A DNA stretch of 64,000 nt from Nannocystaceae bacterium ST9 (lineage in GTDB: Bacteria; Myxococcota_A; Polyangia; Nannocystales; Nannocystaceae), in assembly GCA_048320885.1 (NCBI GenBank), contig JBLWFJ010000001.1:1285642-1349641 (forward strand), given 5' to 3'. The first letter of the stretch is position 1. Every line of letters starts with the position of its first letter. Below are positions 8,930-62,681 of the stretch, piece after piece. The translations under genes were made by a program, and so were the position numbers. Under the pieces are notes generated by a model. That model was not told where the DNA came from. It saw only the letters and a program-made list of their open reading frames with translations, and did no database searches.

Positions 8930-11041
8930 ATGACGGCGCATAGAGATTTCGTCGAACCAATGCATCCCTGCCGACGGGTGGCCCGTCTCGGGATCCTTCT
9001 CGTCACCACGAAAGCGAACAGAAATACCGTGTCCAACCGCAACCGCAACGTCGTCGTTCTCCACACCTCCCGCGCCTTGGTGCCCTTGTGCGTACTCGGC
9101 CTGTTTGGCTGCACCTTCACCACGCCGAGCTCGAGCGGCACCGACATTGGGACCGAAGACGGAGATTCGACCTCCGACGACACCTCCGACGAACACGACC
9201 CCGACGAGCACCACACCCCGGACCACGGCGAGGACGAGACCGAGACGACCGAGACCGGCGAGGGCGAGACCGGGACCAGCGAGACCGGCGAGCCCGAGGG
9301 CGAATGCGGCGACGGCCAGGTCGACGCGGGCGAAGATTGTGACGATGGCAATTCGATCAATGCCGATTCCTGCACCAACGTCTGCGAATCCTCGGCCTGC
9401 GGCGACGGCCACGTGCAGCCGGGCGAGCAGTGCGACTCGGGTGCCGACAACGGCCCCGGCCAAGCTTGCACCGACGCCTGTCTGGTCAACGTGTGTGGCG
9501 ACGCCGATGCCGGGCCCGGTGAGGCCTGCGACGACGGCAACCCGGTCGACGACGACGGCTGCACCAACCTGTGCGCGCTGCCGACCTGCGGCGACGGTCT
9601 CCTGCAGGCGGGCGAAGATTGTGACGACGGCAACCCGGTCGACGACGACGATTGCCTGAGTACCTGCGTGACCCCGAGCTGCGGCGACGGCATCTTGTAC
9701 TACGCCCAAGAGGCGTGTGACCAAGGCGCCCTGAACTCCGACCAGGCCGAGTGCACGGCCGCCTGCCTCTACAACGTGTGCGGCGATGGCCTGCCCTGGA
9801 GCGACGTCGAGGCCTGTGACCTCGGGGTCGAGAACGGCCCCGACGCGGCCTGCCTCGAGGGCTGCACGCTGGCCGCTTGCGGCGACGGCTTCGTCGGGCC
9901 CGAGGAGGCCTGCGACGACGGCAACCTCGACGAGAGCGACGGATGCAGCGCGCTGTGCCAGCTCGAGAGCTGTGGCGACGGCATCGTGCAGTCGGGCGAG
10001 CAGTGCGACGACGCCGACCTCGACGAGACCGACGAGTGCACGACGCACTGCGCGATCCCGATCTGTGGCGACGGCCTGCTCCTGCCCGAGGTCGAGGAGT
10101 GCGACGAAGGCCTGTTCAACGCCAACGAGGGCGGGTGCACGCTCGGCTGCACGCTCGCGAAGTGCGGCGACGGCCTGGTCGAGCTCGACGTCGAGCAATG
10201 CGACCTCGGGCCGGCCAACGCCGACGATGGCGTGTGCAAGACGGATTGCAGCGATCAGGCCTGTGGCGACGGCCTGGTCGGCCCCGGCGAGAGCTGCGAC
10301 GACGGCAACAAGATCAACGACGACGACTGCACCAACGCCTGCGCGCCGGCGAGCTGCGGCGACGACATCCTGCAAGCCGGCGAGGCCTGCGACGACGGCA
10401 ACGCGATCGACGACGACGCCTGCACCAACGCCTGCACCGCGGCGGCCTGCGGCGACGGCATCCTGCAGGCCGGCGAGGCTTGCGACGAGGGGCTCGCCAA
10501 CGCCGACGACGCCCAGTGCACGGCCAGCTGCGTGCTCGCGACTTGCGGCGACGGCCTGGTCTGGGCGGTCGGCGACGAGCAGTGCGACGACGGCAACGCG
10601 ATCGAGGACGACGCCTGCACCAACGCCTGCAGCGAGCCGGCGTGTGGCGACGGCGTCCTGCAAGTCGGCGAAGAATGCGACGACGGCGGGTCGATCGACG
10701 AGGCCTGCTCCGACACCTGCAGCCTGCCGGCCAGCGAGTGCGCCGGGATCACGCTCGACCCCGGCAACGGCGTGCTGGGCTGCTGGTACTCGGCGGGCGA
10801 GCTCGACCTGAGCTGCGACCAGGTCTGTGCCCCGCACGGCGGGTTCGATGCCCTGGCCTCGCAGCACCTCGGCAACCCGCTCGGCACGCTGGTCTGGCCG
10901 GACAAGACCGACGGCGGCGTCTGGGAGTCGATCGAGTGCTCGTCGACCGACAACGACACCAACTGGGGCGCGAACGGTCAGGCCCCGGACTCGACCTGGC
11001 ACCATTCGGCCTGCTACGTCCATTGCGCGTGCGTGCAATGA
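8930..11041 (+). CDS. secreted lipoprotein with myxobacterial Cys-rich repeats (TIGR02232/DUF4215 type)
   Basis: Signal plus lipobox-like LCVLGLFGC; acidic S/T/D/E linker; roughly 18 repeats of about 30 aa built on CGDG...QxGExCDDGN...DDxCTxxC; distinct Cys-rich C-terminal domain. The true start may be downstream of the first ATG. Confidence 0.8.
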   Translation: MTAHRDFVEPMHPCRRVARLGILLVTTKANRNTVSNRNRNVVVLHTSRALVPLCVLGLFGCTFTTPSSSGTDIGTEDGDSTSDDTSDEHDPDEHHTPDHGEDETETTETGEGETGTSETGEPEGECGDGQVDAGEDCDDGNSINADSCTNVCESSACGDGHVQPGEQCDSGADNGPGQACTDACLVNVCGDADAGPGEACDDGNPVDDDGCTNLCALPTCGDGLLQAGEDCDDGNPVDDDDCLSTCVTPSCGDGILYYAQEACDQGALNSDQAECTAACLYNVCGDGLPWSDVEACDLGVENGPDAACLEGCTLAACGDGFVGPEEACDDGNLDESDGCSALCQLESCGDGIVQSGEQCDDADLDETDECTTHCAIPICGDGLLLPEVEECDEGLFNANEGGCTLGCTLAKCGDGLVELDVEQCDLGPANADDGVCKTDCSDQACGDGLVGPGESCDDGNKINDDDCTNACAPASCGDDILQAGEACDDGNAIDDDACTNACTAAACGDGILQAGEACDEGLANADDAQCTASCVLATCGDGLVWAVGDEQCDDGNAIEDDACTNACSEPACGDGVLQVGEECDDGGSIDEACSDTCSLPASECAGITLDPGNGVLGCWYSAGELDLSCDQVCAPHGGFDALASQHLGNPLGTLVWPDKTDGGVWESIECSSTDNDTNWGANGQAPDSTWHHSACYVHCACVQ

Positions 11042-11143
11042 GTCGATGAATCCGAGCCGGGCCGCTCCCCCTCGGCCCGGCTCGGATTCACGCTCCGATT
11101 CCGATTCCAGCCACCGATTCTAGACCCCCCGAAAGAAACGACG

Positions 11144-12832
11144 ATGCGAATTCGACCACTCCACGATTGGCGATGTCCACGATTGAGCCTCGAGACCCTC
11201 GCGCTGATCTTCGAATGCAGCCTGACGTTGGGCTGCGTCGTGCTCGGGCCCAAGGGCTCGGGCGACGAACAGGGCGAGAGCAGCGGCGATACCAGCGACG
11301 ACGACGAGGATCCGAGCGAGGACTCGAGCGACCCGACCAGCGGGGGCGATTCCACCGACCCCGACGGCACCGACGGCACCGACGGCAGCGACGGCACCGA
11401 CGGCACCGGCACCGACGGCGAGCCCGATGCCCCGGTCTGTGGTGATGGCCGGGTCGACCCCGGCGAGGGCTGCGACGACGGCAACCTCGTCGACGACGAC
11501 GCGTGTTCGAACGCGTGCGCCCCGGCGACCTGTGGCGACGCCATCTTGCAAGTCGGCGAGCAATGCGACGACGGCAACCTCGTCGACGAAGACGGCTGCC
11601 TGAACGACTGCGCCGCGGCGACCTGTGGCGACGCCGTCGTGTGGGCGAACGTCGAGGTCTGCGACTTCGGGCCGGCCAACTCCGACGAGGGCGGCTGCAC
11701 GCTGGCGTGCGCGCTGCCGATCTGTGGCGACGGCTTCGTGCAGGACGGCGAGCAGTGCGACGCCGGGCCCGACAACGGCAGCGAGGGCTACTGTCTGCCC
11801 GGCTGCGTCGAGAACGAATGTGGCGACGGCCACGAGGCCCCCGACGAGCCCTGCGACGACGGCAATGGCATCCCCGGCGACGGCTGCTTCGGCTGTCGGC
11901 TCGAGCGCTGCGGCGACGGGATCATCGAGGCCGGCGAGGCCTGCGACGACGGCAACCTCGACGAGGACGACGGCTGCACCAGCGTGTGCTTGCTGCCGAC
12001 CTGCGGCGACGGGTTCGTCCAGCAGGGCGAGCAATGCGACGCCGGCGAGAACAACGGCGACGACGAAGCCTGCACCCGCCACTGTCAGATCGCGACCTGC
12101 GGCGACGGCCTGATCTGGGCGGAGTTCGAGACCTGCGATCAGGGCCCCTTCAACGCCGACGACGGCGCCTGCACCTCGGCCTGCAAGGCCGGCATCTGCG
12201 GTGACGCGCTGGTCGGGCCCGGCGAGCTGTGTGACGACGGCAACGCGATCGACGACGACGGCTGCACCAGCACCTGCACGGTCGCGAGCTGTGGCGACGG
12301 GGTCGAACAGGCGCCCGAGGCCTGCGACGACGGCAACGGCGTCGGCGAGGACGCGTGCAGCAACGCGTGCACGCTGGCGACCTGCGGCGACGGGCTGCAG
12401 CAAGCCGAAGAGAGCTGCGATCTCGGCTCGCTCAACGGCATGTCGGCCTGGTGCACCCCGCTCTGCCACGCGCAGGTCTGCGGCGACGGCATCTACTTCC
12501 CGCTCGGCGGCGAGGAGTGCGACGACGGCAACGCGATCGAGAGCGACGGCTGCAACGGCGAGTGCGACGAGGCCGAGTGCGGCAACGGGCACCTCGAGCT
12601 GCCCGAGCAGTGCGACGACGGCAACGCGATCGAGGGTGACGGCTGCACCAACGCCTGCCTCGAGCAGATCTGCGGCGACGGAGTCGTGCAGGCCGGCGAG
12701 GCCTGCGAAGACGGCAACCTGCTCGGACAGACCTGCGACTCGATCAGTCAGGGCGAGCTGCCCTTCGGCGAGCTCGGCTGCGACGCCAGCTGCAAGCCGA
12801 CGACCGATGCCTGCAGCGCGGAGGGAGGCTGA
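11144..12832 (+). CDS. secreted lipoprotein with myxobacterial Cys-rich repeats (second paralogue)
   Basis: Lipobox LTLGC; acidic low-complexity linker (GSGDEQGESSGDTSDDDEDPSEDSSD...); 14 or more CGDG repeats; first gene of a tightly coupled operon. Confidence 0.8.
   Translation: MRIRPLHDWRCPRLSLETLALIFECSLTLGCVVLGPKGSGDEQGESSGDTSDDDEDPSEDSSDPTSGGDSTDPDGTDGTDGSDGTDGTGTDGEPDAPVCGDGRVDPGEGCDDGNLVDDDACSNACAPATCGDAILQVGEQCDDGNLVDEDGCLNDCAAATCGDAVVWANVEVCDFGPANSDEGGCTLACALPICGDGFVQDGEQCDAGPDNGSEGYCLPGCVENECGDGHEAPDEPCDDGNGIPGDGCFGCRLERCGDGIIEAGEACDDGNLDEDDGCTSVCLLPTCGDGFVQQGEQCDAGENNGDDEACTRHCQIATCGDGLIWAEFETCDQGPFNADDGACTSACKAGICGDALVGPGELCDDGNAIDDDGCTSTCTVASCGDGVEQAPEACDDGNGVGEDACSNACTLATCGDGLQQAEESCDLGSLNGMSAWCTPLCHAQVCGDGIYFPLGGEECDDGNAIESDGCNGECDEAECGNGHLELPEQCDDGNAIEGDGCTNACLEQICGDGVVQAGEACEDGNLLGQTCDSISQGELPFGELGCDASCKPTTDACSAEGG
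12823..12827 (+). promoter_or_regulatory. GGAGG ribosome-binding site for 12835..13254
   Basis: gagGGAGGctgatcATG; the upstream TGA stop is 2 nt before the ATG. Confidence 0.5.
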
Positions 12833-25487: not shown

Positions 25488-25968
25488 GTGCCGATCCCCG
25501 CCGAGTTCCAGGCCGAGAGCCTCTACGCGCCCGACCAGTGGTACATCCACGACCTGCTCGAGGTCGAGCGCGACCCCAGCGAGGGCCTCGATCGCGTCGT
25601 CGCGCTCTGCGACACCGCCACGCTCGCCGACCACCCGATCGTCGCCGCCCAGCGCGAGTGGCCCGGCCAACCCAAGCACGTGCCCGGGATCGTCATGGTC
25701 CAGATCACCGGCACGCTCGGCAACCTGCACGCCGTCTGCGTGATGGGCCTGAAGATGAGAGGGCTGGGTCGGGTTCGGGACCAACATCCACGAGGCCAGG
25801 TTCTCGGGGATCGGCCGGATCGGGCCGGGGTTGGTCTGCGAGCTGAAGATCGAGCGAATGCGGCGGATCAAGGGCCAGGTGTTCGGGACCTACGCGTTTC
25901 GCTTCGAGCAGGAGGGGAAGGTGATCTATCGGTCGCGGCAGACCGCGAGCTGGTCGCGGGTCGGGTAG
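25488..25968 (+). pseudogene. FabZ/FabA-like hotdog dehydratase with apparent +1 frameshift (around 25751-25770)
   Basis: N-part in frame 0 (...DHPIVAAQREWPGQPKHVPGIVMVQITGTLGNLHAVCVMGLKM); C-part in frame 1 (GFGTNIHEARFSGIGRIGPGLVCELKIERMRRIKGQVFGTYAFRFEQEGKVIY...), matching the FabZ C-terminus; join point in the run gagggctgg. Confidence 0.55.
25803..25917 (+). repeat. direct repeat copy A (3' end of the FabZ-like gene)
   Basis: About 95% identical to 28505..28616; the two copies bracket the HK/REC-Mrr cassette. Confidence 0.8.
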
Positions 25969-25976
25969 GGGCCGGG

Positions 25977-26897
25977 CTACTTGGCGCCTGCGCTGGTCTC
26001 GATCGCGCGTTGATGCAGCGTCTTGAGCACTTCGTTGCGCGCGGGGTCGTCCACCAAGCGCTGGAGCTCGTCGGGCCCGATCGGAACGACGACGATGTTC
26101 TCCCGGCGACGCGTCGCCAGCGTGGCCGCGAACCCCTTGGTGAATCCATTGGCCGCGATGAAGAAACCGAGCGTGGCCCGTCCGAAGCGGCGCTCGAGTT
26201 TGTTGGTGAAGCGATCGAGCTCATTGGGGCCGACGCTGCCGCTCCAGTTCTTGCACTCCACCAAGAAGTATTGACTCTCCTTGGTCCAGAAGGGATCGAT
26301 GGACTCGTTGCGAACGACGAGATCGAACTCCTCGTCGAGGCCGCGTCGGCGGGTGGCGACGACGAAGCCCGGCGCCGCCCGAAAGATCGACTCGACGAGA
26401 TCCTCCAAGATCCGCCCTTTCTCGGCGCTCGTGGTCGCCCCACGAACTTGGGCCTGCAACTCGCTCAGGCGCGTGGAGACCTCGTCTTCCGCGGAGGTCA
26501 GCCATCGCTCGCGGGCCAACTCGATCGCGTTTCGGACCTTGGCCCGCAGCAGCGTCTTGAAGTTTTCGGTCTTCTCGACGTAATCGTAGACTCCGACCTT
26601 GAACGCACGCTCGATCGTCTCGGGGCTCGCGTAGCCGGTGACGATGATGATCTTGGCGCCCGGGCTCCTTCGTTCGACCTCCTCGATCAATTCGAGGCCC
26701 TCGTCGCCGCCCGCGGATCCATGCAAGCGTTGATCGAGCAGCACGACCGACCAATCGCCTTGGTCGAGCGCGTCCACGGCTTGCTGATAGCTCGACACTC
26801 CCGTCACGCTCAGACCGTCGAGACCCAGCATTTCGCCATAGATGGCGAGGATGTTCTTTTCGTCGTCGACGGCGAGGATCTTGTCGTAGCGATTCAC
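25977..26897 (-). CDS. response regulator: REC domain fused to Mrr-like restriction endonuclease (PD-(D/E)xK) domain
   Basis: REC (ILAVDDEKNIL...VVLLDQRL...KIIIVTGY); C-terminal EDLVESIFRA...EEFDLVV...FLVECKNWSGSVGPNELDRF, typical Mrr_cat D...E.K core; lower GC than the surroundings. Confidence 0.7.
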   Translation of the reverse strand: MNRYDKILAVDDEKNILAIYGEMLGLDGLSVTGVSSYQQAVDALDQGDWSVVLLDQRLHGSAGGDEGLELIEEVERRSPGAKIIIVTGYASPETIERAFKVGVYDYVEKTENFKTLLRAKVRNAIELARERWLTSAEDEVSTRLSELQAQVRGATTSAEKGRILEDLVESIFRAAPGFVVATRRRGLDEEFDLVVRNESIDPFWTKESQYFLVECKNWSGSVGPNELDRFTNKLERRFGRATLGFFIAANGFTKGFAATLATRRRENIVVVPIGPDELQRLVDDPARNEVLKTLHQRAIETSAGAK

Positions 26898-28453
26898 TGT
26901 CCCTCCTGGATCGCGGGCAACTCTATGTGAAACCGAGCACCACCGTCAACCGACCCCTCGCACGTCACCTTGCCACCGAAGTCGCGTTCGACGACCTCTC
27001 GGACCAAGGCCAAGCCATGGCCGGCTCCATCGGGCCGACCCGAGACTCCGTGGTCGAAGATTCGCTCGCGGAGCGGCTCTGGGACGCCCGGACCGTCGTC
27101 CTCGACCGTCAGATGAATCGCGTCGGGATCCCGAGCATCGACCACGATCGAGATCTGGACATCGGGCCCTCCACTCTGCATCGCGTTGCGCAGAATGTTG
27201 ACGATCGCCAGCACCGCGCGGCCGCGATGCCCGCGGGTCTTGGGGCCCGCTGCGCCCGGCACCGTCTCGACGCGAATGCTGCCCCGAAACTCCGGAGACA
27301 GCGCGCGACGGGCCTCTTCGATCACGTCCAGCACCGCGAATGACGTGATGGCATCGTCGATCGGCGAGCTCATTCGTACGGATGTCTCGACAAAGCGATA
27401 GAGGCGGGTGATGCCGCCCTCGATCTGCTCGCGCGGCATGGCGAGTGATTCTTCCAGATCGGCCTGCGCGACGGCCATCCAGACCTTGTCGAGCGCATGC
27501 CGGATGGGAAGCAGCGCGTTTCGGACTTCGTGCGCGACCAGTCGCATCTGTCGCATCGCCGCGGCCGTCGATTGATTCTCTCGATCGACGTCGCCGACCG
27601 AGAGAATCACTTCGCTGCGGTCATCTTCCATTTGAGCCAACGCCGCGGATCGAAAGGAGGCGAGGACGTCGGAGTTGACGGCGGCGAACAGATCATTGCC
27701 GAGCGCCGTCAACTCGTACCCGATCCGGTGCTCCCCGTATTCTCCCTCATGCAGCACTCCCAATGCGGACCAACGGGCGATCCCGGACCAACCCAACAAC
27801 GTACGCTCTTCGTCATTGTCGATGGTGAACGTGTATCCTGCGCGCTGGAGGATCAGAGATACATACGCCGTACCGACACACCAGGCATCGCCGAGCCCCC
27901 CTCCGCGAACACCCTCCAACGCGATCAACCATCGCACTCGATCGATCCCGCGCAAGCTCAGAAAGGTCTTGCCGGAGAGGCTCACGAGCGGGCCGCCGAG
28001 TCGCACGCCGACCAGCCCGAGGTGCTCGCAATACCGAGAGACGATCTGCCACGGGTATTTGCCCGACGTGGCTTGCACATCTCGTGTTACCCTTCGTGCC
28101 AGCTCTTCCAGTCGTACGCGCCTCGGCCATTCGATCGAGGAGAACGAGGGATCGTCGATATCCACCGCGATGGCGATGGCCGCGTCGATGTGGTCGCGGC
28201 GCGACTGCCACGACAGCCGAGCCGCAAAGCCTGCCAACAACTCCCAGTGCATTTCGTCGACGAAGTGCGAAAGGACGTGTGTTCCCCATTCGCTAAACCT
28301 TGCGGCCGGGGCCGCCTCGCGCTCGAACAGCGACACCAGGGTCGCCTCATGATGCGAAAGGTCTGGCGGCCTGTCCGCCTCCACCGCCTCCGTCGCCTCG
28401 ATGCTCTGCACTCGGCGCAGGTGGTGCTCGATCTGCGCGACGAAGTCGGACAC
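26894..28453 (-). CDS. cytoplasmic sensor histidine kinase with uncharacterised roughly 300 aa N-terminal domain
   Basis: GTG start; H-box VAHEVRNALLPI; HATPase_c GHGLALVREVVERDFGG; no TM segments; stop overlaps the RR ATG (ATGA). Confidence 0.75.
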   Translation of the reverse strand: MSDFVAQIEHHLRRVQSIEATEAVEADRPPDLSHHEATLVSLFEREAAPAARFSEWGTHVLSHFVDEMHWELLAGFAARLSWQSRRDHIDAAIAIAVDIDDPSFSSIEWPRRVRLEELARRVTRDVQATSGKYPWQIVSRYCEHLGLVGVRLGGPLVSLSGKTFLSLRGIDRVRWLIALEGVRGGGLGDAWCVGTAYVSLILQRAGYTFTIDNDEERTLLGWSGIARWSALGVLHEGEYGEHRIGYELTALGNDLFAAVNSDVLASFRSAALAQMEDDRSEVILSVGDVDRENQSTAAAMRQMRLVAHEVRNALLPIRHALDKVWMAVAQADLEESLAMPREQIEGGITRLYRFVETSVRMSSPIDDAITSFAVLDVIEEARRALSPEFRGSIRVETVPGAAGPKTRGHRGRAVLAIVNILRNAMQSGGPDVQISIVVDARDPDAIHLTVEDDGPGVPEPLRERIFDHGVSGRPDGAGHGLALVREVVERDFGGKVTCEGSVDGGARFHIELPAIQEGQ

Positions 28454-28504: not shown

Positions 28505-28616
28505 TCGGTATCGGCCGGATCGGGCCGGGTTGGTCTGCGAGCTGAAGATCGGGCGGATGCGGACGATCAAGGGGCAGGTGTTCGGGACCTACGCGTTTCG
28601 CTTCGAGCAGGAGGGG
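28505..28616 (+). repeat. direct repeat copy B (orphan FabZ-like 3'-end fragment)
   Basis: Encodes ...VCELKIGRMRTIKGQVFGTYAFRFEQEG then diverges; about 95% identical to copy A. Confidence 0.8.
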
Positions 28617-44647: not shown

Positions 44648-44759
44648 TCGATTGGGCTCGCTGGAGATCCATGCGAATCATTGAACCGGCACGAATGCGT
44701 GATTGCGACCGGCATCCCTGCTGGTTACGCGTTCGGATCCCCCGCGATAGCGTCCGCGC

Positions 44760-45818
44760 GTGACCTCGAAGCCCCACGACGCGCTGTTCAAGACCGCGTT
44801 CGAGCTGCCCGAGAGCGCCGCCGACCTGGCGCGCCACAATCTTCCCGCGTCGGTCGCCGCCGCGATCCGCTGGTCGACGATGGAGCTCGCGCCCGGCTCC
44901 TTCATCGCGCCCTCGCTCGCCGACCACCACAGCGACCTGCTCTTTCGCGTCGAGACCGAGATTGGCGACGCCCTGATCTACCTGCTCTTCGAGCACCAGA
45001 GCACCAACGACCCCCGCATGCCCCTGCGAATGCTCGTGTACATGCTGCGGATCTGGGAGCGCCACGCCAAGGAGCACGAAGGCTCGCCGCTTCCGCCGAT
45101 CATTCCCTTGCTGATCTGCCACGCGACGAATGGCTGGACCTCGCCGCGAAGCTTCCACGAGCTCTTCCCGACCACGCTCGCCGCGGTCCCCGAGCTCGCG
45201 CAATTCGTGCCGAGCTTCACCCTGCTCGTCGACGATCTCACTCATGTGACCAACGACGAACTCGAGGCCCGCGCGCTCGCGGGCGTCGCCAAGCTCGCGC
45301 TGTGGCTGCTCCGTGACGGTCGCTTTGCCAACCAGATCCTGGCCAACTTGCCCGCATGGGCTCACGCCATCCGTGAGGCGATGCGCACGCCGAGCGGGAG
45401 GTCGGCCCTGCGTTCTCTGTTCAGCTACTTGGTGGAGGTCAACGAGGGGCTGACCTACGACCTGTTTCATGCCAAGCTCGAAGAACACGCCCCCGAAGCT
45501 GCACGGGAATTCATGACGATCGCAGACAAATTGCTCAACGAAGGTCACGCCAAGGGCCGCATCGAAGGCCGCAACGAGGGTCGCGTCGAAGGCCGCAACG
45601 AAGGTCGCGTCGAGGGTCGCGTCGAGGGTCGCGTCGAAGGTCGCGTCGAAGGTCGTGTCGAAGGTGCGGCGAGCGTGCTGAGCAAGCTGCTCGGGCTGAA
45701 GTTCGGCGAGCTGCCCGAGCCCTACCGAGCACGCCTCGCCCATGCGAGCCCCGACGAGCTCGACGCCTGGACCGACCGAGTGCTCACCGCGGCGACGCTC
45801 GAGCAAGTCTTCGCCTGA
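44760..45818 (+). CDS. Rpn-family recombination-promoting nuclease / putative transposase (YhgA-like, PD-(D/E)xK)
   Basis: N-terminal DALFKTAFELPESAADLARHNLPASV family signature; C-terminal EFMTIADKLLNEGHAKG followed by GR(I/V/N)EGR repeats as in Rpn C-termini. Confidence 0.7.
   Translation: MTSKPHDALFKTAFELPESAADLARHNLPASVAAAIRWSTMELAPGSFIAPSLADHHSDLLFRVETEIGDALIYLLFEHQSTNDPRMPLRMLVYMLRIWERHAKEHEGSPLPPIIPLLICHATNGWTSPRSFHELFPTTLAAVPELAQFVPSFTLLVDDLTHVTNDELEARALAGVAKLALWLLRDGRFANQILANLPAWAHAIREAMRTPSGRSALRSLFSYLVEVNEGLTYDLFHAKLEEHAPEAAREFMTIADKLLNEGHAKGRIEGRNEGRVEGRNEGRVEGRVEGRVEGRVEGRVEGAASVLSKLLGLKFGELPEPYRARLAHASPDELDAWTDRVLTAATLEQVFA
45555..45665 (+). repeat. 12 bp coding tandem repeat (ggtcgcgtcgaa-type, about 9 copies)
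   Basis: Encodes GRIEGRNEGRVEGRNEGRVEGRVEGRVEGRVEGRVEG inside the Rpn-like gene. Confidence 0.75.
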
Positions 45819-45850
45819 CGACGCCGGCCATCGAGATCGCGCAGAAATTC

Positions 45851-46099
45851 ATGACGATCGCCGACAAGTTGCTCGACGAAGGTCGCGCCAAGGGTCGCAT
45901 CGAGGGCCGCGTCGAAGGTCGCATCGAAGGTCGCGTCGAAGGTGCCGCGAGCGTGCTGAGCAAGCTACTCGGGCTGAAGTTCGGCGAGCTGCCCGAGCTC
46001 TATCGAGCTCGCCTCGCCCAGGCGCGGCCCGACGAGCTCGATGCCTGGACCGATCGAGTGCTCACCGCAGCGACGCTCGAGCAGGTCTTCGCCGACTAA
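45851..46099 (+). pseudogene. duplicated 3' fragment of the Rpn-like gene
   Basis: MTIADKLLDEGRAKGRIEGRVEGRIEGRVEGAASVLSKLLGLKFGELPELYRARLAQARPDELDAWTDRVLTAATLEQVFAD is near-identical to the C-terminus of 44760..45818. Confidence 0.55.
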
Positions 46100-53195: not shown

Positions 53196-54698
53196 ATGTC
53201 TCGTTCGCCTCGCCATTCGCTCTCTCTCGTCCTCTTCGTTGGTTCGTTCGGTCTGGCTTGCAAGGGTGGTGGTGAGACCGACTCTCGCGGTGACACGGTC
53301 GGCTCGACCGCCGAGGACACCAGCGCCGACACCTCGACCGACACCTCGACCACCAACGTCGCGACCACGGAAGACGACGCGACGACCCAGAGCCCCGCCA
53401 CCTGCGGCGACGGTCAGGTCGACGAGGGCGAGGAGTGCGACGACGCCAACGACGTCGACACCGACGCCTGCACCAACAGCTGCACCAACGCGATCTGTGG
53501 CGACGGGATCGCGCAAGCCGGGGTCGAGGCCTGCGACGACGCCAACACCGTCGACACCGACGCCTGCACCAACGCGTGCGCCAACGCGACTTGTGGCGAC
53601 GGCATCGTCGAGGACGGGGTCGAGACCTGCGACGACGGCAACGCCGACGACACCGACGACTGTCCGACCAGCTGCGCGCCGGCCAGCTGCGGCGACGGCT
53701 TCGTGCAAGCCGGCGTCGAGGCCTGCGACGACGGCAACACCGACGACAGCGACGGCTGCGTCGCCGGCTGCGTCGCCGCAGGCTGTGGCGACGGCTTCGT
53801 CCAGAACCGGGTCGAGGCCTGCGACGACGGCAACGACGTCGACGACGACGCCTGCACCAACGCCTGCGCGCTGGCCAGCTGCGGCGACGGGATCGTCCAG
53901 ATGGGCGAGGAGTGCGACGACGACAACGCCGTCGACACCGACGCCTGCCCGAGCAATTGCCTCACGGCGACCTGCGGCGACGGCTTCGTGCAAGCCGGCG
54001 TCGAGACCTGCGACGACGCGGGCGAGTCGGACGTGTGTGACGCCGACTGCAGCGCGGCGAGCTGTGGCGACGGCGTGCTCAACACCAGCGCCGGCGAGGC
54101 GTGCGACGACGGCAACATGATCGACACCGACGCGTGCGTCAGTGACTGCGCCGACGCCAGCTGCGGCGACGGATACGTGCGAGCCGGGGTCGAGGAGTGC
54201 GACGACGGCAATGGCGTCGACGACGACCAGTGCGCCAACGACTGCACCGAGAACACCTGCACGCCCACGGGCCAGCGCGCGCCCTTCGTCACGATCGGCA
54301 ACGACACCGCGAGCGGCTGCTGGAACGGCAACCCCTGCGCGTTCGACAGCTTCGCGTGGGATGCCTCCCACGGCCAGGACTTCCAGGCCTTCGACCAGGG
54401 CGTGACCTGTTCGGGCGCCACGACCTGCGTCGCCAACGTCGGCATCACCACCTACAACAGCGGCAGCGTCTGCCAGGGCAAGTGGGACGTGCTCTGCGAC
54501 GGCCAAGTCGTCGGCTCGATCAACACGATCGGGGTGGCTTGCAGCGGCTCGGCCATGAACAACGCCTGCCGGGCGACCTTCCCGGCCATCGAGTGCGCCA
54601 GCATCCGGCTGGTCGCCGTGCAGGACAACGACGTGACCACGGGCTGCTGCGGCGGATCCAACCCCGACTCGATGATCACGGGCGTCAGCGCCTGGTAG
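53196..54698 (+). CDS. secreted lipoprotein with myxobacterial Cys-rich repeats (third paralogue) and a distinct Cys-rich C-terminal domain
   Basis: Signal/lipobox-like FVGSFGLAC; acidic T/S/D linker; about 10 CGDG repeats; roughly 150 aa non-repeat C-terminal domain. Confidence 0.8.
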   Translation: MSRSPRHSLSLVLFVGSFGLACKGGGETDSRGDTVGSTAEDTSADTSTDTSTTNVATTEDDATTQSPATCGDGQVDEGEECDDANDVDTDACTNSCTNAICGDGIAQAGVEACDDANTVDTDACTNACANATCGDGIVEDGVETCDDGNADDTDDCPTSCAPASCGDGFVQAGVEACDDGNTDDSDGCVAGCVAAGCGDGFVQNRVEACDDGNDVDDDACTNACALASCGDGIVQMGEECDDDNAVDTDACPSNCLTATCGDGFVQAGVETCDDAGESDVCDADCSAASCGDGVLNTSAGEACDDGNMIDTDACVSDCADASCGDGYVRAGVEECDDGNGVDDDQCANDCTENTCTPTGQRAPFVTIGNDTASGCWNGNPCAFDSFAWDASHGQDFQAFDQGVTCSGATTCVANVGITTYNSGSVCQGKWDVLCDGQVVGSINTIGVACSGSAMNNACRATFPAIECASIRLVAVQDNDVTTGCCGGSNPDSMITGVSAW

Positions 54699-60361: not shown

Positions 60362-61381
60362 ATGAGCCCCTCCGAACCAATCAAGAAGCTGACTCGCAAG
60401 GACTTCACCTCGGACCAAGACGTCCGCTGGTGTCCCGGCTGTGGCGACTACGCGATCCTCGCGACCATGCAGCGCACGCTGCCGGAGCTCGGCGCGGATC
60501 CGGCCAAGACCGTGTTCGTCTCGGGCATCGGCTGCTCCAGCCGCTTCCCCTACTACATGAACACCTACGGGTTCCACAGCATCCACGGTCGCGCGCCCGC
60601 GTTCGCGACCGGGCTCAAGCTGACCAACCCGGAGCTCGACGTCTGGGTGGTGACCGGCGACGGCGACGGCCTGAGCATCGGCGGCAACCACCTGATGCAC
60701 CTGCTGCGCCGCAACGTCGACCTGCAGATCCTGCTGTTCAACAACCGGATCTACGGGCTGACCAAGGGCCAGTACTCGCCGACCTCGCTGGTCGGCCTGC
60801 GCTCGCCCTCGACGCCGTTCGGCTCGGTCGATCTGCCGATCGTGCCGGCCTCGCTGGCGCTCGGCGCCGGCGCCCGCTTCGTCGCGCGCTCGGTCGACAC
60901 GCTGGCCAGTCACCTCGGCGAGACCTTCGTGGCCGCCCGCGCCCACCGAGGGACCAGCTTCGTCGAGATCCTGCAGAACTGCCCTGTGTTCAACGACGGC
61001 GCCTGGGACCACGTCAAGACCAAGTCGAAGGCCAGCGACTCGATGCTGATGCTCGAGCACGGCAAGCCGATGCTCTTCGGCGAGAACAAGGGCCTGCGCC
61101 TGGTCCCCGGCAAGCTCGAGCTCGAGGTCGTCACCCTCGGCGAGAACGGGATCGGCGAAGCCGACATCGTCCTGCACGACGAAGGCAACCGCTCGATGGC
61201 GTTCCTGCTCGCGGGCCTCGAGCCGCCGAGCTTCCCGATCTGTCTGGGCGTGCTCTATCGCGAGGCGGGGCCGACCTACGAGGCGTCGGTTCGCGCGCAG
61301 GTCGAGTACGCGATCAAGAAGCAAGGCGTCGGGGACATCGACGCGCTGCTCTGCGACGGCCACACCTGGACCGTCGAGTAA
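60362..61381 (+). CDS. korB: 2-oxoacid:ferredoxin oxidoreductase subunit beta (TPP-binding)
   Basis: WCPGCGDYAI Cys motif and TPP-binding GDGDGLSIGGNH. Confidence 0.85.
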   Translation: MSPSEPIKKLTRKDFTSDQDVRWCPGCGDYAILATMQRTLPELGADPAKTVFVSGIGCSSRFPYYMNTYGFHSIHGRAPAFATGLKLTNPELDVWVVTGDGDGLSIGGNHLMHLLRRNVDLQILLFNNRIYGLTKGQYSPTSLVGLRSPSTPFGSVDLPIVPASLALGAGARFVARSVDTLASHLGETFVAARAHRGTSFVEILQNCPVFNDGAWDHVKTKSKASDSMLMLEHGKPMLFGENKGLRLVPGKLELEVVTLGENGIGEADIVLHDEGNRSMAFLLAGLEPPSFPICLGVLYREAGPTYEASVRAQVEYAIKKQGVGDIDALLCDGHTWTVE

Positions 61382-61409
61382 GCGCGATCACGAGCACGAA
61401 GCGCTTGCG

Positions 61410-61810
61410 AGGAGGGCGGCGGAACGCCCTCCAACGACCAGCGAGCGTCAGCAAAGAGGCGCCCGCAACCGACCGCGAACCGGAGTGAGCGGCCCGAGAG
61501 GGCAGTGAGGTGGGGGTCCCGTGACGGCTCCGCCGGCACGGGGGAGGGCGGCGGAACGCCCTCCCACGACCCTCCGCAACCGACCGCGAACCGGAGTGAG
61601 CGGCCCGAGAGGGCAGTGAGGTGGGGGTCCCGTGACGGCGAAGCCGGCACGGGGGAGGGCGGCGGAACGCCCTCCAAAGACCAGCGAGCGTCAGCAAAGA
61701 GGCGCCCGCAACCGACCGCGAACCGGAGTGAGCGGCCCGAGAGGGCAGTGAGGAGGGGGTCCCGTGACGGCTCCGCCGGCACGGGGGAGGGCGGCGGAAC
61801 GCCCTCCCTC
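61410..61810. repeat. tandem repeat of a roughly 115-130 bp unit (3 full copies plus a partial), each with two conserved hairpins
   Basis: Unit: ggagggcg-gcggaa-cgccctcc hairpin, spacer, caaccgaccgcgaaccggagtgagcggcccgagagggcagtgagg, then cccgtgacgg...ccggcacggg hairpin; copy 2 lacks a 33 bp insert; sits between korB and 61872..62681. Confidence 0.8.
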
Positions 61811-61871
61811 CAGACAGAATGATCCCCGCAGCGCCCCGTCGAACCCGACGGACACCAGGAGCCATCTAACA

Positions 61872-62681
61872 ATGAGCCTGTTTCAGACCCTCCATCTCCG
61901 GACCTCTCTCTTGCTCGGCTCGCTGCTCGGGCTCAGCTACGGATGTCTGATCTCCGTGGGTCCGCCCGCCGAGCCCTGTGACTCGGGCGTGCACAACCAG
62001 CTCGACGATCAAGGCGAGTGCATCTGCGACATCGGCTACGACTGGTGCAACCCCAACGATCCCAACGACCTCGACTGCTGCGACAACAACGTCGGCGAGG
62101 ACGAGGTCGGCACGAGCAACGGCAACACGACGAACACGTCGAACGACACGTCGAACGACACGACCGCGACCGACACCGGTGATGGCGACGGCGACACGAC
62201 CGCGACCGACACCGGTGATGGCGACGGCGACACCGGCACCTTCCCGCCCGACACCTGCCTGCCCGAAGAAGAGGGCTTCTACTGGTGCACGCACTCGGAG
62301 GCGATGGGCCCCGAAGGCAGCCAGCTCTTCGTCTGCACCGGCGGCGCGTGGGTCGAGAACGCCGGCGTGATGGACGAGAGCTGCGGCTTCGACGGCTACG
62401 ACTTCGCCTACGGCTGCGTCGACAACGGCACCGAGGTGATCTTCGAGTGTGGCGTCGGCTCCGGTGACGCCTGCGACGAGACCTCGCCTGCGTTCTGCGT
62501 CGACGACGACCAGATCGGCTACTGCTACCAGGGCAAGGAGACCTGGGACTCGTGCATGACCTTCTGTCAGGAGGTCGGCATCGACGGGGTCACCTACGAG
62601 TACGGCGAGTGCGACGACTCGGTGCCCGACGACGTGGCCTGCTTCTGCTGCGACTCGGGCGACCAGGGCTGCCCGATCTGA
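61872..62681 (+). CDS. Cys-rich secreted lipoprotein with internal TATDTGDGDGDT repeat
   Basis: Signal peptide with Cys (LLGLSYGC); 20 or more Cys; tandem paralogue of 62743..63408. Confidence 0.6.
   Translation: MSLFQTLHLRTSLLLGSLLGLSYGCLISVGPPAEPCDSGVHNQLDDQGECICDIGYDWCNPNDPNDLDCCDNNVGEDEVGTSNGNTTNTSNDTSNDTTATDTGDGDGDTTATDTGDGDGDTGTFPPDTCLPEEEGFYWCTHSEAMGPEGSQLFVCTGGAWVENAGVMDESCGFDGYDFAYGCVDNGTEVIFECGVGSGDACDETSPAFCVDDDQIGYCYQGKETWDSCMTFCQEVGIDGVTYEYGECDDSVPDDVACFCCDSGDQGCPI

Follow-up and report, generated by a model that had tools for sequence, protein, structure and literature searches.

A dispersed family of hairpin-based intergenic repeats in Nannocystaceae and its tandem cluster downstream of korB

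What is the GC-rich tandem array that occupies the spacer between korB and the next gene of Nannocystaceae bacterium ST9, and what could it do in this position? We addressed these questions in a 64-kb stretch of contig JBLWFJ010000001.1 (64,000 nucleotides (nt); hereinafter, the window), for which an earlier note, made from the sequence alone, had described three-and-a-bit tandem copies of an approximately 120-bp element and had suggested repeats similar to repetitive extragenic palindromes (REPs) or bacterial interspersed mosaic elements (BIMEs), a multi-terminator, or a small RNA (sRNA) array. The array gathers members of a dispersed family of intergenic, hairpin-based repeats that is present in several lineages of Nannocystaceae, a family of marine and soil myxobacteria, at many unrelated sites. 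This previously undescribed family is a new one among mosaic extragenic palindromic repeats. The overall reading that we favor, with a probability of roughly 0.72, is that of a dispersed, Nannocystaceae-specific mosaic extragenic palindromic repeat cluster that was shaped by selfish spread and local amplification and forms a hairpin barrier at the 3' end of korAB.

The spacer between the TAA stop codon of korB (61379-61381) and the next ATG (61872) is 490 bp long and contains four copies, all on the plus strand, of a 22-nt hairpin, hereinafter hairpin 1 (HP1), GGAGGGCG-GCGGAA-CGCCCTCC (in full, GGAGGGCGGCGGAACGCCCTCC), at 61411-61432, 61543-61564, 61654-61675 and 61786-61807. The 8-bp stem and 6-nt loop are those that had been noticed before, and the exact HP1 sequence has 0 matches in 100 dinucleotide-preserving shuffles. 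Three near-identical units lie between the HP1 copies, with periods of 132, 111 and 132 bp rather than the approximately 120 bp suggested, and share a 37-nt core that is identical across the three copies. In addition, a truncated fourth unit of a different subtype is located 5' of the first HP1 (~61393-61432). The array was called both by Tandem Repeats Finder and by a second repeat search. The earlier note had tied its claim of a tandem array 3' of korB to high-identity alignment of the units, and this is what is found: over 154 nt, unit 1 matches unit 3 with 98.7% identity, and unit 2 is 97% identical to either outside one indel. In this indel, unit 2 has CTC in place of a 24-nt stretch with an accessory hairpin (GCGAGCGTC..GGCGCCCGC), a net loss of 21 bp, not the 33-bp deletion originally proposed. 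The second hairpin of the unit (HP2; CCCGTGACGGC-NNN-GCCGGCACGGG) is indeed present, in three copies, with a stem of 11 positions that includes one A.G mismatch; its loop is GAA in unit 2 and TCC in the other units. The last HP1 ends 64 nt before the ATG at 61872, rather than the 60 bp reported. The 89-110-nt sequences between the HP1 copies are 97-100% mutually identical and no cas domains were detected among the window proteins scanned, in agreement with the earlier view that the array is not CRISPR-like.

Could the array nevertheless be a protein-coding repeat, or an assembly artefact? All three periods (132, 111 and 132 bp) are multiples of 3, as is the 21-bp indel, and open reading frames (ORFs) of 105-198 amino acids (aa) span the array, namely, 61505-61822 on the plus strand and 61276-61872 and 61314-61865 on the minus strand. 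However, at 70% GC, long ORFs are to be expected in all frames, and those that span the array (75% GC, compared to 69.5% for the window) are a usual high-GC artefact. The GC content of the array is flat across the codon positions (0.81/0.68/0.75), unlike that of real genes, such as korB, with 0.94 at position 3, in line with the initial assessment of the region as non-coding. Furthermore, other arrays of the family have periods of ~88 and ~101 nt, neither of which is divisible by 3, and comparable arrays are identical in independent assemblies (L052 and L053, over the shared 248 nt; here and below, L-numbers denote metagenome loci, with the exception of L055, which comes from the isolate Pseudenhygromyxa WMMC2535). 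We regard a coding repeat or an artefact as hardly credible.

The evidence that the array belongs to a dispersed family comes from metagenomes. The exact HP1 22-mer matches 39 metagenome stretches, and in 28 of these, with a GC content of 65-74%, the modules follow the same order as in the window units: a 5' box, a further hairpin (HP0), a purine-rich linker (GAGGAGGGGG-like), a variable HP2, an 8-9-bp HP1 and an (A/C)AAAGAC tail. HP0, which is GCCC-GAGA-GGGC in the window, also occurs as GGCGC-GAA-GCGCC, GGGCC-GAAA-GGCCC and GCGCC-GGGGA-GGCGT; the linker reads TGCGAGGAGGGGG in the family and AGTGAGGTGGGGG in the window; and in HP2, the basal CCCC/GGGG is constant and the distal stem is variable. 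Host lineage was checked by protein homology on two of the 28 stretches, where the encoded proteins have their best matches in Nannocystaceae bacterium ST9 (89% and 75% identity) and their next best in Enhygromyxa and Pseudenhygromyxa. Scans with two successive covariance models built from family copies, R1 and then R2, which score the window units at 87-89 and 70-73 bits, respectively, and the truncated unit at 41-43 bits, identified members with divergent HP1 in the closest relatives of the window, either solo or in arrays of two to three:

L010 (KorB 89% identical), 12010-12365, minus strand: three tandem units in the spacer just 3' of the lipoprotein orthologue.
L010, 1147-1235, plus strand: solo copy.
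L008 (KorB 92% identical), 11947-12048, minus strand: solo copy in the same place as the L010 array.
L008, 19220-19322, plus strand: solo copy.
L052/L053, 11483-11677, minus strand: two tandem units in the spacer between a 3-oxoacyl-acyl carrier protein (ACP) reductase gene and a thiolase gene.

Family sites number one or two per ~20 kb in the relatives, and all copies are intergenic; no copy was detected in the 21 kb of L055. HP1 is GGAGGGCG-GCGGAA-CGCCCTCC in the window, GGCGGCCA-GCCGAA-TGGCCGCC in L008 and GGAGAAACC-GGCG-GGTTTCTCC in L010, and all three variants are followed by AAAGAC or AAATGAC. The window and L008 have in common the A.G mismatch (GTGACG..CGGCAC) of the long HP2 form.

Other searches delimit the family. 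The core 29-mer of the array is absent from the metagenomes, the core 20-mer yielded a single chance match in a coding region among the GTDB genomes, in a Roseobacter metagenome-assembled genome, and blastn against plasmids and phages produced no match. Rfam 15 gave only chance hits (E ~1) outside the array for the window and none for the family-bearing loci except for an unrelated tRNA-Sec (L045, 10464-10557, 73.9 bits), which lies on a Nannocystaceae-like contig together with a family element. Literature searches for REPs, for REP-associated tyrosine transposases (RAYTs) and for intergenic repeats in myxobacteria, Enhygromyxa and Myxococcus turned up no such family. The remaining 11 HP1 stretches (58-64% GC) have unrelated flanks and were rejected as family members. 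They represent a different repeat of ~60% GC, with flanks ggtccggaaacat..gtttccgg..ggttcc / ggcccgcc and without an Rfam match, in L013, L016, L019, L020, L024, L033, L037, L039, L040, L043 and L047; L020 contains three HP1 copies (4398, 5725 and 7550), and at least one of these contigs is labelled human gut metagenome. The presence of HP1 in this repeat reflects either convergence or the reuse, by chance, of a stable hairpin. A 12-nt match (CCCTCCACGACC) after korB in L009, where there is no HP1, was treated as chance.

These data bear on the simplest alternative, under which the array would be a private, one-off tandem duplication of the native terminator hairpin region of korB, that is, a variable number tandem repeat (VNTR). 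HP1 is found nowhere else in the window, even when three mismatches are allowed, the 97-100% identity of the copies implies recent local amplification, and other lineages have a duplicated hairpin of their own in the korB spacer. However, homologous units with the same module order are present at dozens of unrelated Nannocystaceae loci, and the subtype of the truncated unit differs from that of units 1-3, so that the cluster is no simple self-duplication. A private duplication is thus barely plausible. The duplicated hairpin of the other lineages is a different, 26-nt unit (AACCGAGTCCGCCACCCGTGGCGGAG; L002, 11021-11213, compared with L007, 1356-1542), and in this lineage (KorB 91% identical), assemblies from different samples differ by a 6-nt indel at the duplication. 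Because L002 and L007 carry their own duplicated unit, the korB spacer appears to be a recurrent site of hairpin duplication.

Is the hairpin structure what is maintained? In the window, the array folds with z = -4.8 on the plus strand and z = -3.2 on the minus strand relative to shuffles, and each unit folds into independent hairpins, with approximately -17 kcal/mol for HP1 and -18 kcal/mol for HP2 as RNA on either strand. In a 33-copy model alignment, 95.5% of the stem cells form standard pairs, compared to 45-56% in the control where the 3' partners were slid by 1-3 columns; both sides change in a compensatory manner in 17 of the 24 pairs, and the covariation score is reached by 0 of 500 shuffles. 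Thus, compensatory changes have preserved the pairing of all three stems. Against this background of covarying stems, the HP1 loop (GCSGAA), the A.G mismatch in the long HP2 and the AAAGAC tail are constant. On the strand shown, the stems contain 20 G.T wobbles versus 6 A.C.

Most of the family sites are next to convergent genes. Of the 17 sites with a callable neighboring gene, 14 have the stop codon of a convergent gene 3-77 nt away on the HP1 side; the other three face a same-strand ORF, and the window array, which faces the same-strand downstream gene, belongs to this minority class. Where the flanking genes are co-directional, the element is in the sense orientation in the window and in L008 (19220) and antisense in L008, L010 and L052. 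HP1 is preceded by GGG(G), and the four copies in the window are followed by AACGACC, CACGACC, AAAGACC and CTCCAGA.

This distribution matters for the suggestion that the units form an array of sRNA genes or, alternatively, a structured 5' leader that regulates the downstream gene for a secreted protein. The unit folds compactly into multiple hairpins with a GNRA (GAGA) loop on the plus strand, the array ends 64 nt upstream of the start codon, and the excess of G.T over A.C in the stems would fit a transcribed structure. However, no promoter-like (sigma-70-like) site was found in or before the units, there is no match to an Rfam family, five relatives have an orthologue of the downstream gene but no array in front of it, the element is antisense to the flanking genes in L008, L010 and L052, and most of the sites are at the ends of convergent genes. 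The occurrence of family copies in both orientations relative to the flanking genes argues against a dedicated sRNA gene, and we consider the sRNA array of the initial proposal, or a leader function, very unlikely. Several more specific candidates were rejected. A ToxI-like type III antitoxin is incompatible with units of 111-132 nt, not ~36-45 nt, and with a downstream gene of the secreted-protein type that has no Pfam hit and is conserved without the array. For a retron msr/msd or the template repeat of a diversity-generating retroelement, no reverse transcriptase domain was detected in the 25 proteins scanned from the window or, for those loci with Pfam listings of their called genes, in these listings, and the element is multi-locus. 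A sigma-54 promoter at the HP2/HP1 junction (GGCACG-N-GGGC) was dismissed as well: by eye, the GG/GC spacing exceeds the required one by 1 nt, and the motif simply coincides with the 3' arm of HP2.

The family apparently moves, and its copy number is unstable. Sister lineages carry the element at different sites, and the copy number per site differs between assemblies. Only the window genome has the element in the korB spacer, whereas L008 and L010 carry it in the next one; the spacer between the reductase and thiolase genes is 272 bp long, with two units, in L052, and only 34 bp long in L054. L010 and L012, which represent the same locus in different samples, differ by exactly one 88-nt unit (array region, 11990-12520 of L010). 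Three contigs (L011, L012 and L053) terminate inside arrays, which indicates that repeats of this family break short-read assemblies; 13 of the 28 HP1 matches are no more than 300 nt away from a contig end. Tandem amplification extends to sub-modules, on L015, L023, L045 and L046, including the upstream 'GAGCGAACGCGAAGCGAAC' boxes on L015, L023 and L045. Two minor features of the reductase-thiolase spacer can be mentioned here. The 'empty' 34-bp spacer of L054 (4019-4052) contains GTGATGAGCGAGCGAA, a 16-nt exact match to the type-A upstream box that may be a solo remnant module. In L052 (11440-11490; also L036, 60-120), a hairpin with a 13-bp stem (GTTCATCGGAAAG..CTTTCCGACGAAC) separates the repeat units from the gene end, and one of its arms consists of the last codons of the 3-oxoacyl-ACP reductase gene.

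How did the cluster next to korB come together? The modules of this locus are as follows:

60362..61381, plus strand: korB, the beta subunit of 2-oxoglutarate:ferredoxin oxidoreductase (Pfam TPP_enzyme_C; homologues with 91-92% identity; synteny in relatives).
61382..61392, plus strand: remnant of the ancestral spacer, GCGCGATCACG; the same 10-11 nt follow the korB stop codon in L008 and L002, which are array-free at this site.
61393..61439, plus strand: unit 0, truncated, of the other subtype, with a degenerate HP0, linker CGAAGCGCTTGCGAGGAGGG, no HP2, HP1 copy 1 and tail AACGACC.
61441..61466, plus strand: accessory hairpin GCGAGCGTC..GGCGCCCGC, predicted at -12.8 kcal/mol; units 1 and 3 carry it (second copy, 61684-61709), unit 2 does not.
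61467..61571, plus strand: unit 1 core (covariance-model match 61471-61574, 89.1 bits, E ~1e-19), with 5' box AACCGACCGCGAACCGGAGTGAGC, HP0 61491-61503 (GCCC-GAGA-GGGC), linker 61504-61517, HP2 61518-61542, HP1 copy 2 61543-61564 and tail CACGACC.
61578..61682, plus strand: unit 2 core, the short unit (covariance-model match 61582-61685, 87.1 bits), with HP0 61602-61614, HP2 61629-61653 with the GAA loop, HP1 copy 3 61654-61675 and tail AAAGACC.
61710..61817, plus strand: unit 3 core (covariance-model match 61714-61817, 87.1 bits), with HP0 61734-61746, linker 61747-61760 with a T>A change, HP2 61761-61785, HP1 copy 4 61786-61807 and tail CTCCAGACAG.
61815..61874, plus strand: conserved leader of the downstream gene, from an alignment of six orthologous spacers.
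61872..62681, plus strand: downstream gene, 269 aa, Cys/Asp-rich, secreted or lipoprotein-like; outside the element, with orthologues that lack an array upstream.

In total, the mosaic cluster comprises three complete units and a truncated one, arranged head-to-tail. Unit 0 is a genuine family member: the covariance models match 61376-61442 with 42.8 (R1) and 41.2 (R2) bits, and its 20-mer at 61397-61416 (CGAAGCGCTTGCGAGGAGGG) is identical at the homologous position on L022, L029 and L050. Units 1 and 3 resemble each other more closely than either resembles unit 2, and this A-B-A' pattern hints at a second, dimer-sized duplication, suggesting at least two amplification steps. Under the reading we favor, the family would spread into gene-end spacers as selfish or near-neutral DNA, and local amplification would proceed with the identical HP1 repeats of 22-25 bp as substrates for slippage or unequal recombination.

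The surroundings of the cluster are conserved, which allows the insertion to be delimited. The genes 5' of the array encode a sodium:dicarboxylate symporter (SDF-transporter), KorA and KorB, with korB being the last gene of the block. Its initial identification is supported by the TPP_enzyme_C domain and the names of the homologues: the protein is 91-92% identical to proteins from uncultured metagenome assemblies and ~81-82% identical to those of Enhygromyxa and Pseudenhygromyxa. Gene order around korB is kept in the relatives, and in L002, L008, L009, L010 and L055, the spacer between korB and the next gene is 107-217 bp long and lacks the element. The relatives share both edges of the spacer, namely, the 11 nt that directly follow the korB stop codon (GCGCGATCACG) and the ~60 nt immediately 5' of the ATG, so the insertion can be delimited to ~61393-61814. 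The downstream 269-aa protein, only putatively the lipoprotein of the earlier note, has no match in Pfam and starts with a signal-like N-terminus that includes ..LSYGC. Within its gene, the window contains a perfect 36-nt coding repeat in 2.2 copies (TTATDTGDGDGD; 62156-62233).

In four relatives (L002, L008, L010 and L055), the downstream gene is preceded by a promoter-like arrangement, GCGAATTCGAC-N18-CAGAAT/CACAAT (compared spacers: window 61770-61874; L002 11110-11216; L008 11040-11146; L010 11106-11215; L055 11095-11246). Conservation and similarity to the consensus suggest that GCGAATTCGAC/CAGAAT is the promoter of this gene. The window leader keeps the -10-like CAGAAT (61815-61820) and a small hairpin (CCGTCGAACCCGACGG), followed by AGGAGCC (61857-61863), the ribosome-binding site, ahead of the ATG at 61872. 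In the window, HP1 copy 4 takes the place of the missing -35-like box GCGAATTCGAC and ends 7 nt before CAGAAT; L009 also lacks this box. To judge from these alignments, the cluster displaced the conserved -35-like box and probably weakened the gene's own promoter. Expression of the downstream gene is probably rewired as a result, through the weakened promoter and/or read-through from korAB.

How does the family compare with the repeat systems that are known from other bacteria? HP1, a 22-nt extragenic palindrome with many dispersed copies, is within the 20-40 nt range of the short REP palindromes. The resemblance to REP and BIME extends to GC-rich intergenic palindromes that are located mostly at gene 3' ends and in convergent spacers and that form clustered mosaics, to compensatory stem changes and lineage-specific variants, and to the hairpins expected in 3' untranslated regions (UTRs). 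In contrast to REPs, there is no GTAG-type 5' tetranucleotide, and neither GTAG nor CTAC adjoins HP1 in the alignment. There is no sequence similarity either, and each unit contains three different hairpins rather than one. The linkers are conserved, as in BIMEs, but the units have the same orientation in the window, L010 and L052, without the alternation of BIMEs; by the same token, all clustered copies are head-to-tail, unlike the inverted REP doublets of REPINs. Thus, the initial likening to REP/BIME holds in kind (dispersed intergenic copies, covarying stems, presence/absence polymorphism, tandem amplification) but not with respect to GTAG or alternation; no Y1_Tnp domain, as would be expected of a RAYT, was detected among the 25 window proteins scanned.

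Similarities to other systems are partial as well. The BOX elements of Streptococcus pneumoniae (boxA-boxB(n)-boxC) are also modular and intergenic, with an amplified module, a stable predicted structure and no encoded protein, but they come from an unrelated phylum, have an unrelated sequence and a very different GC content, and their modules lack a bounding terminal hairpin. The Neisserial intergenic mosaic elements (NIMEs) consist of 50-150-bp units flanked by 20-bp dRS3 inverted repeats. The family shares with them the alternation of palindrome and unit (HP1-unit-HP1...), the ~100-bp unit size, the intergenic location and the variable copy number, but not the sequence, and dRS3 elements are target sites for phages and insertion sequences (ISs), an association that was not seen here. 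Finally, mycobacterial interspersed repetitive unit (MIRU)-VNTR loci likewise comprise head-to-tail units of 50-130 bp in co-directional spacers at several dozen loci with polymorphic copy number; however, MIRUs lack strong palindromes and often overlap small ORFs, whereas in the present family, the hairpins are the conserved feature and most of the sites are between convergent genes.

A potential explanation that dispenses with RNA is that the hairpins act purely at the DNA level, as single-stranded DNA structures recognized by an HUH/Y1 (RAYT- or IS200/IS605-like) transposase, by nucleoid proteins or by gyrase, as in BIME-2. Covarying stems combined with the constant HP1 loop, HP2 mismatch and AAAGAC tail are the pattern expected of protein-recognized hairpins, and many HP2 and HP0 copies contain GCGAAGC or C-GAA-G, which is an unusually stable DNA mini-hairpin. 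The copies are found in both orientations relative to transcription, and the sites are polymorphic for presence or absence. However, no Y1 transposase was detected among the window proteins scanned, the units are head-to-tail as opposed to the inverted doublets typical of REPINs, and the GTAG-like 5' motif is absent; moreover, a DNA-level role is compatible with a side effect on RNA, so this explanation overlaps with the one we favor. In its exclusive form, without any RNA role, we consider it unlikely. A bolder version, doubtful but worth keeping in view, is an active element mobilized through single-stranded DNA by its own cognate enzyme or, alternatively, a bidirectional terminator cassette without a U-tract that is copied genome-wide. 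As a mobile element, it may use the GCSGAA loop, the A.G mismatch and the AAAGAC tail as recognition or cleavage signals and may target the first few nucleotides after stop codons, which may make it REPIN/RAYT-like with an independent origin in Myxococcota.

Under the favored reading, a repeat cluster that spread selfishly and was amplified locally would also affect the korAB transcript. Being in the sense orientation relative to korB and starting 11 nt after its stop codon, the cluster would endow this transcript with ~12 consecutive GC-rich hairpins in its 3' UTR. REP/BIME and BOX elements impede RNA polymerase and 3' exonucleases. By analogy, the hairpins most likely act as a 3'-end barrier that would cause RNA polymerase to pause or terminate and would block 3'-to-5' exonucleases; the same stack would insulate the downstream gene, and mRNA stabilization, as envisaged in the earlier note, is a plausible consequence.

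Several points weigh against this reading. The role in RNA at korB is argued by analogy only. None of the hairpins in 61385-61830 is followed by a T/U-run on either strand, so the units are not canonical intrinsic terminators, and the multi-terminator proposed initially lacks the canonical signature. Within the window, the family is confined to the single post-korB site. The 33-copy alignment behind the covariation was fitted to the model, and its copies are related by descent; for HP1, the covariation comes from the few L008 and L010 copies because most of the others were ascertained via the exact HP1. The wobble counts only weakly suggest a strand preference, too weakly to assign the functional strand. 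Lastly, no RAYT/Y1 or other mobilizing enzyme was found among the window proteins scanned, and none was noticed on the metagenome loci.

The significance of the family is incremental and involves no new biological principle. A covariance model for these repeats is of use in Nannocystaceae, a group with large, natural-product-rich and poorly annotated genomes, where it explains breaks of metagenome contigs at these sites, and given that copy number varies, the arrays could serve as strain-typing markers. The family also flags many 3' UTRs with strong hairpins that may determine how stable an mRNA is or where an operon ends; canonical terminators are rare in this lineage. The locus itself, where the repeats separate korAB, an operon of central metabolism, from a gene for a secreted protein, is a testable case of promoter rewiring by repeat insertion.

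The window contains several other repeats. By far the largest repeat families are coding arrays of 93-99-nt repeats with CGDG...C.DDGN motifs (9300-12800 and 53330-54310), which we take to be myxobacterial cysteine-rich repeat proteins. In the region 44751-46093, a gene for a YhgA-like putative transposase/nuclease (Pfam Transposase_31) is followed by a 12-nt periodic stretch (45501-45665) and by a 218-nt direct repeat with 92% identity (45598-45815 and 45876-46093). A 95-nt direct repeat with 93% identity, its copies 2.7 kb apart (25823-25917 and 28522-28616), is located near a response-regulator/Mrr_cat gene (25980-26945, minus strand) and may mark paralogous gene ends.

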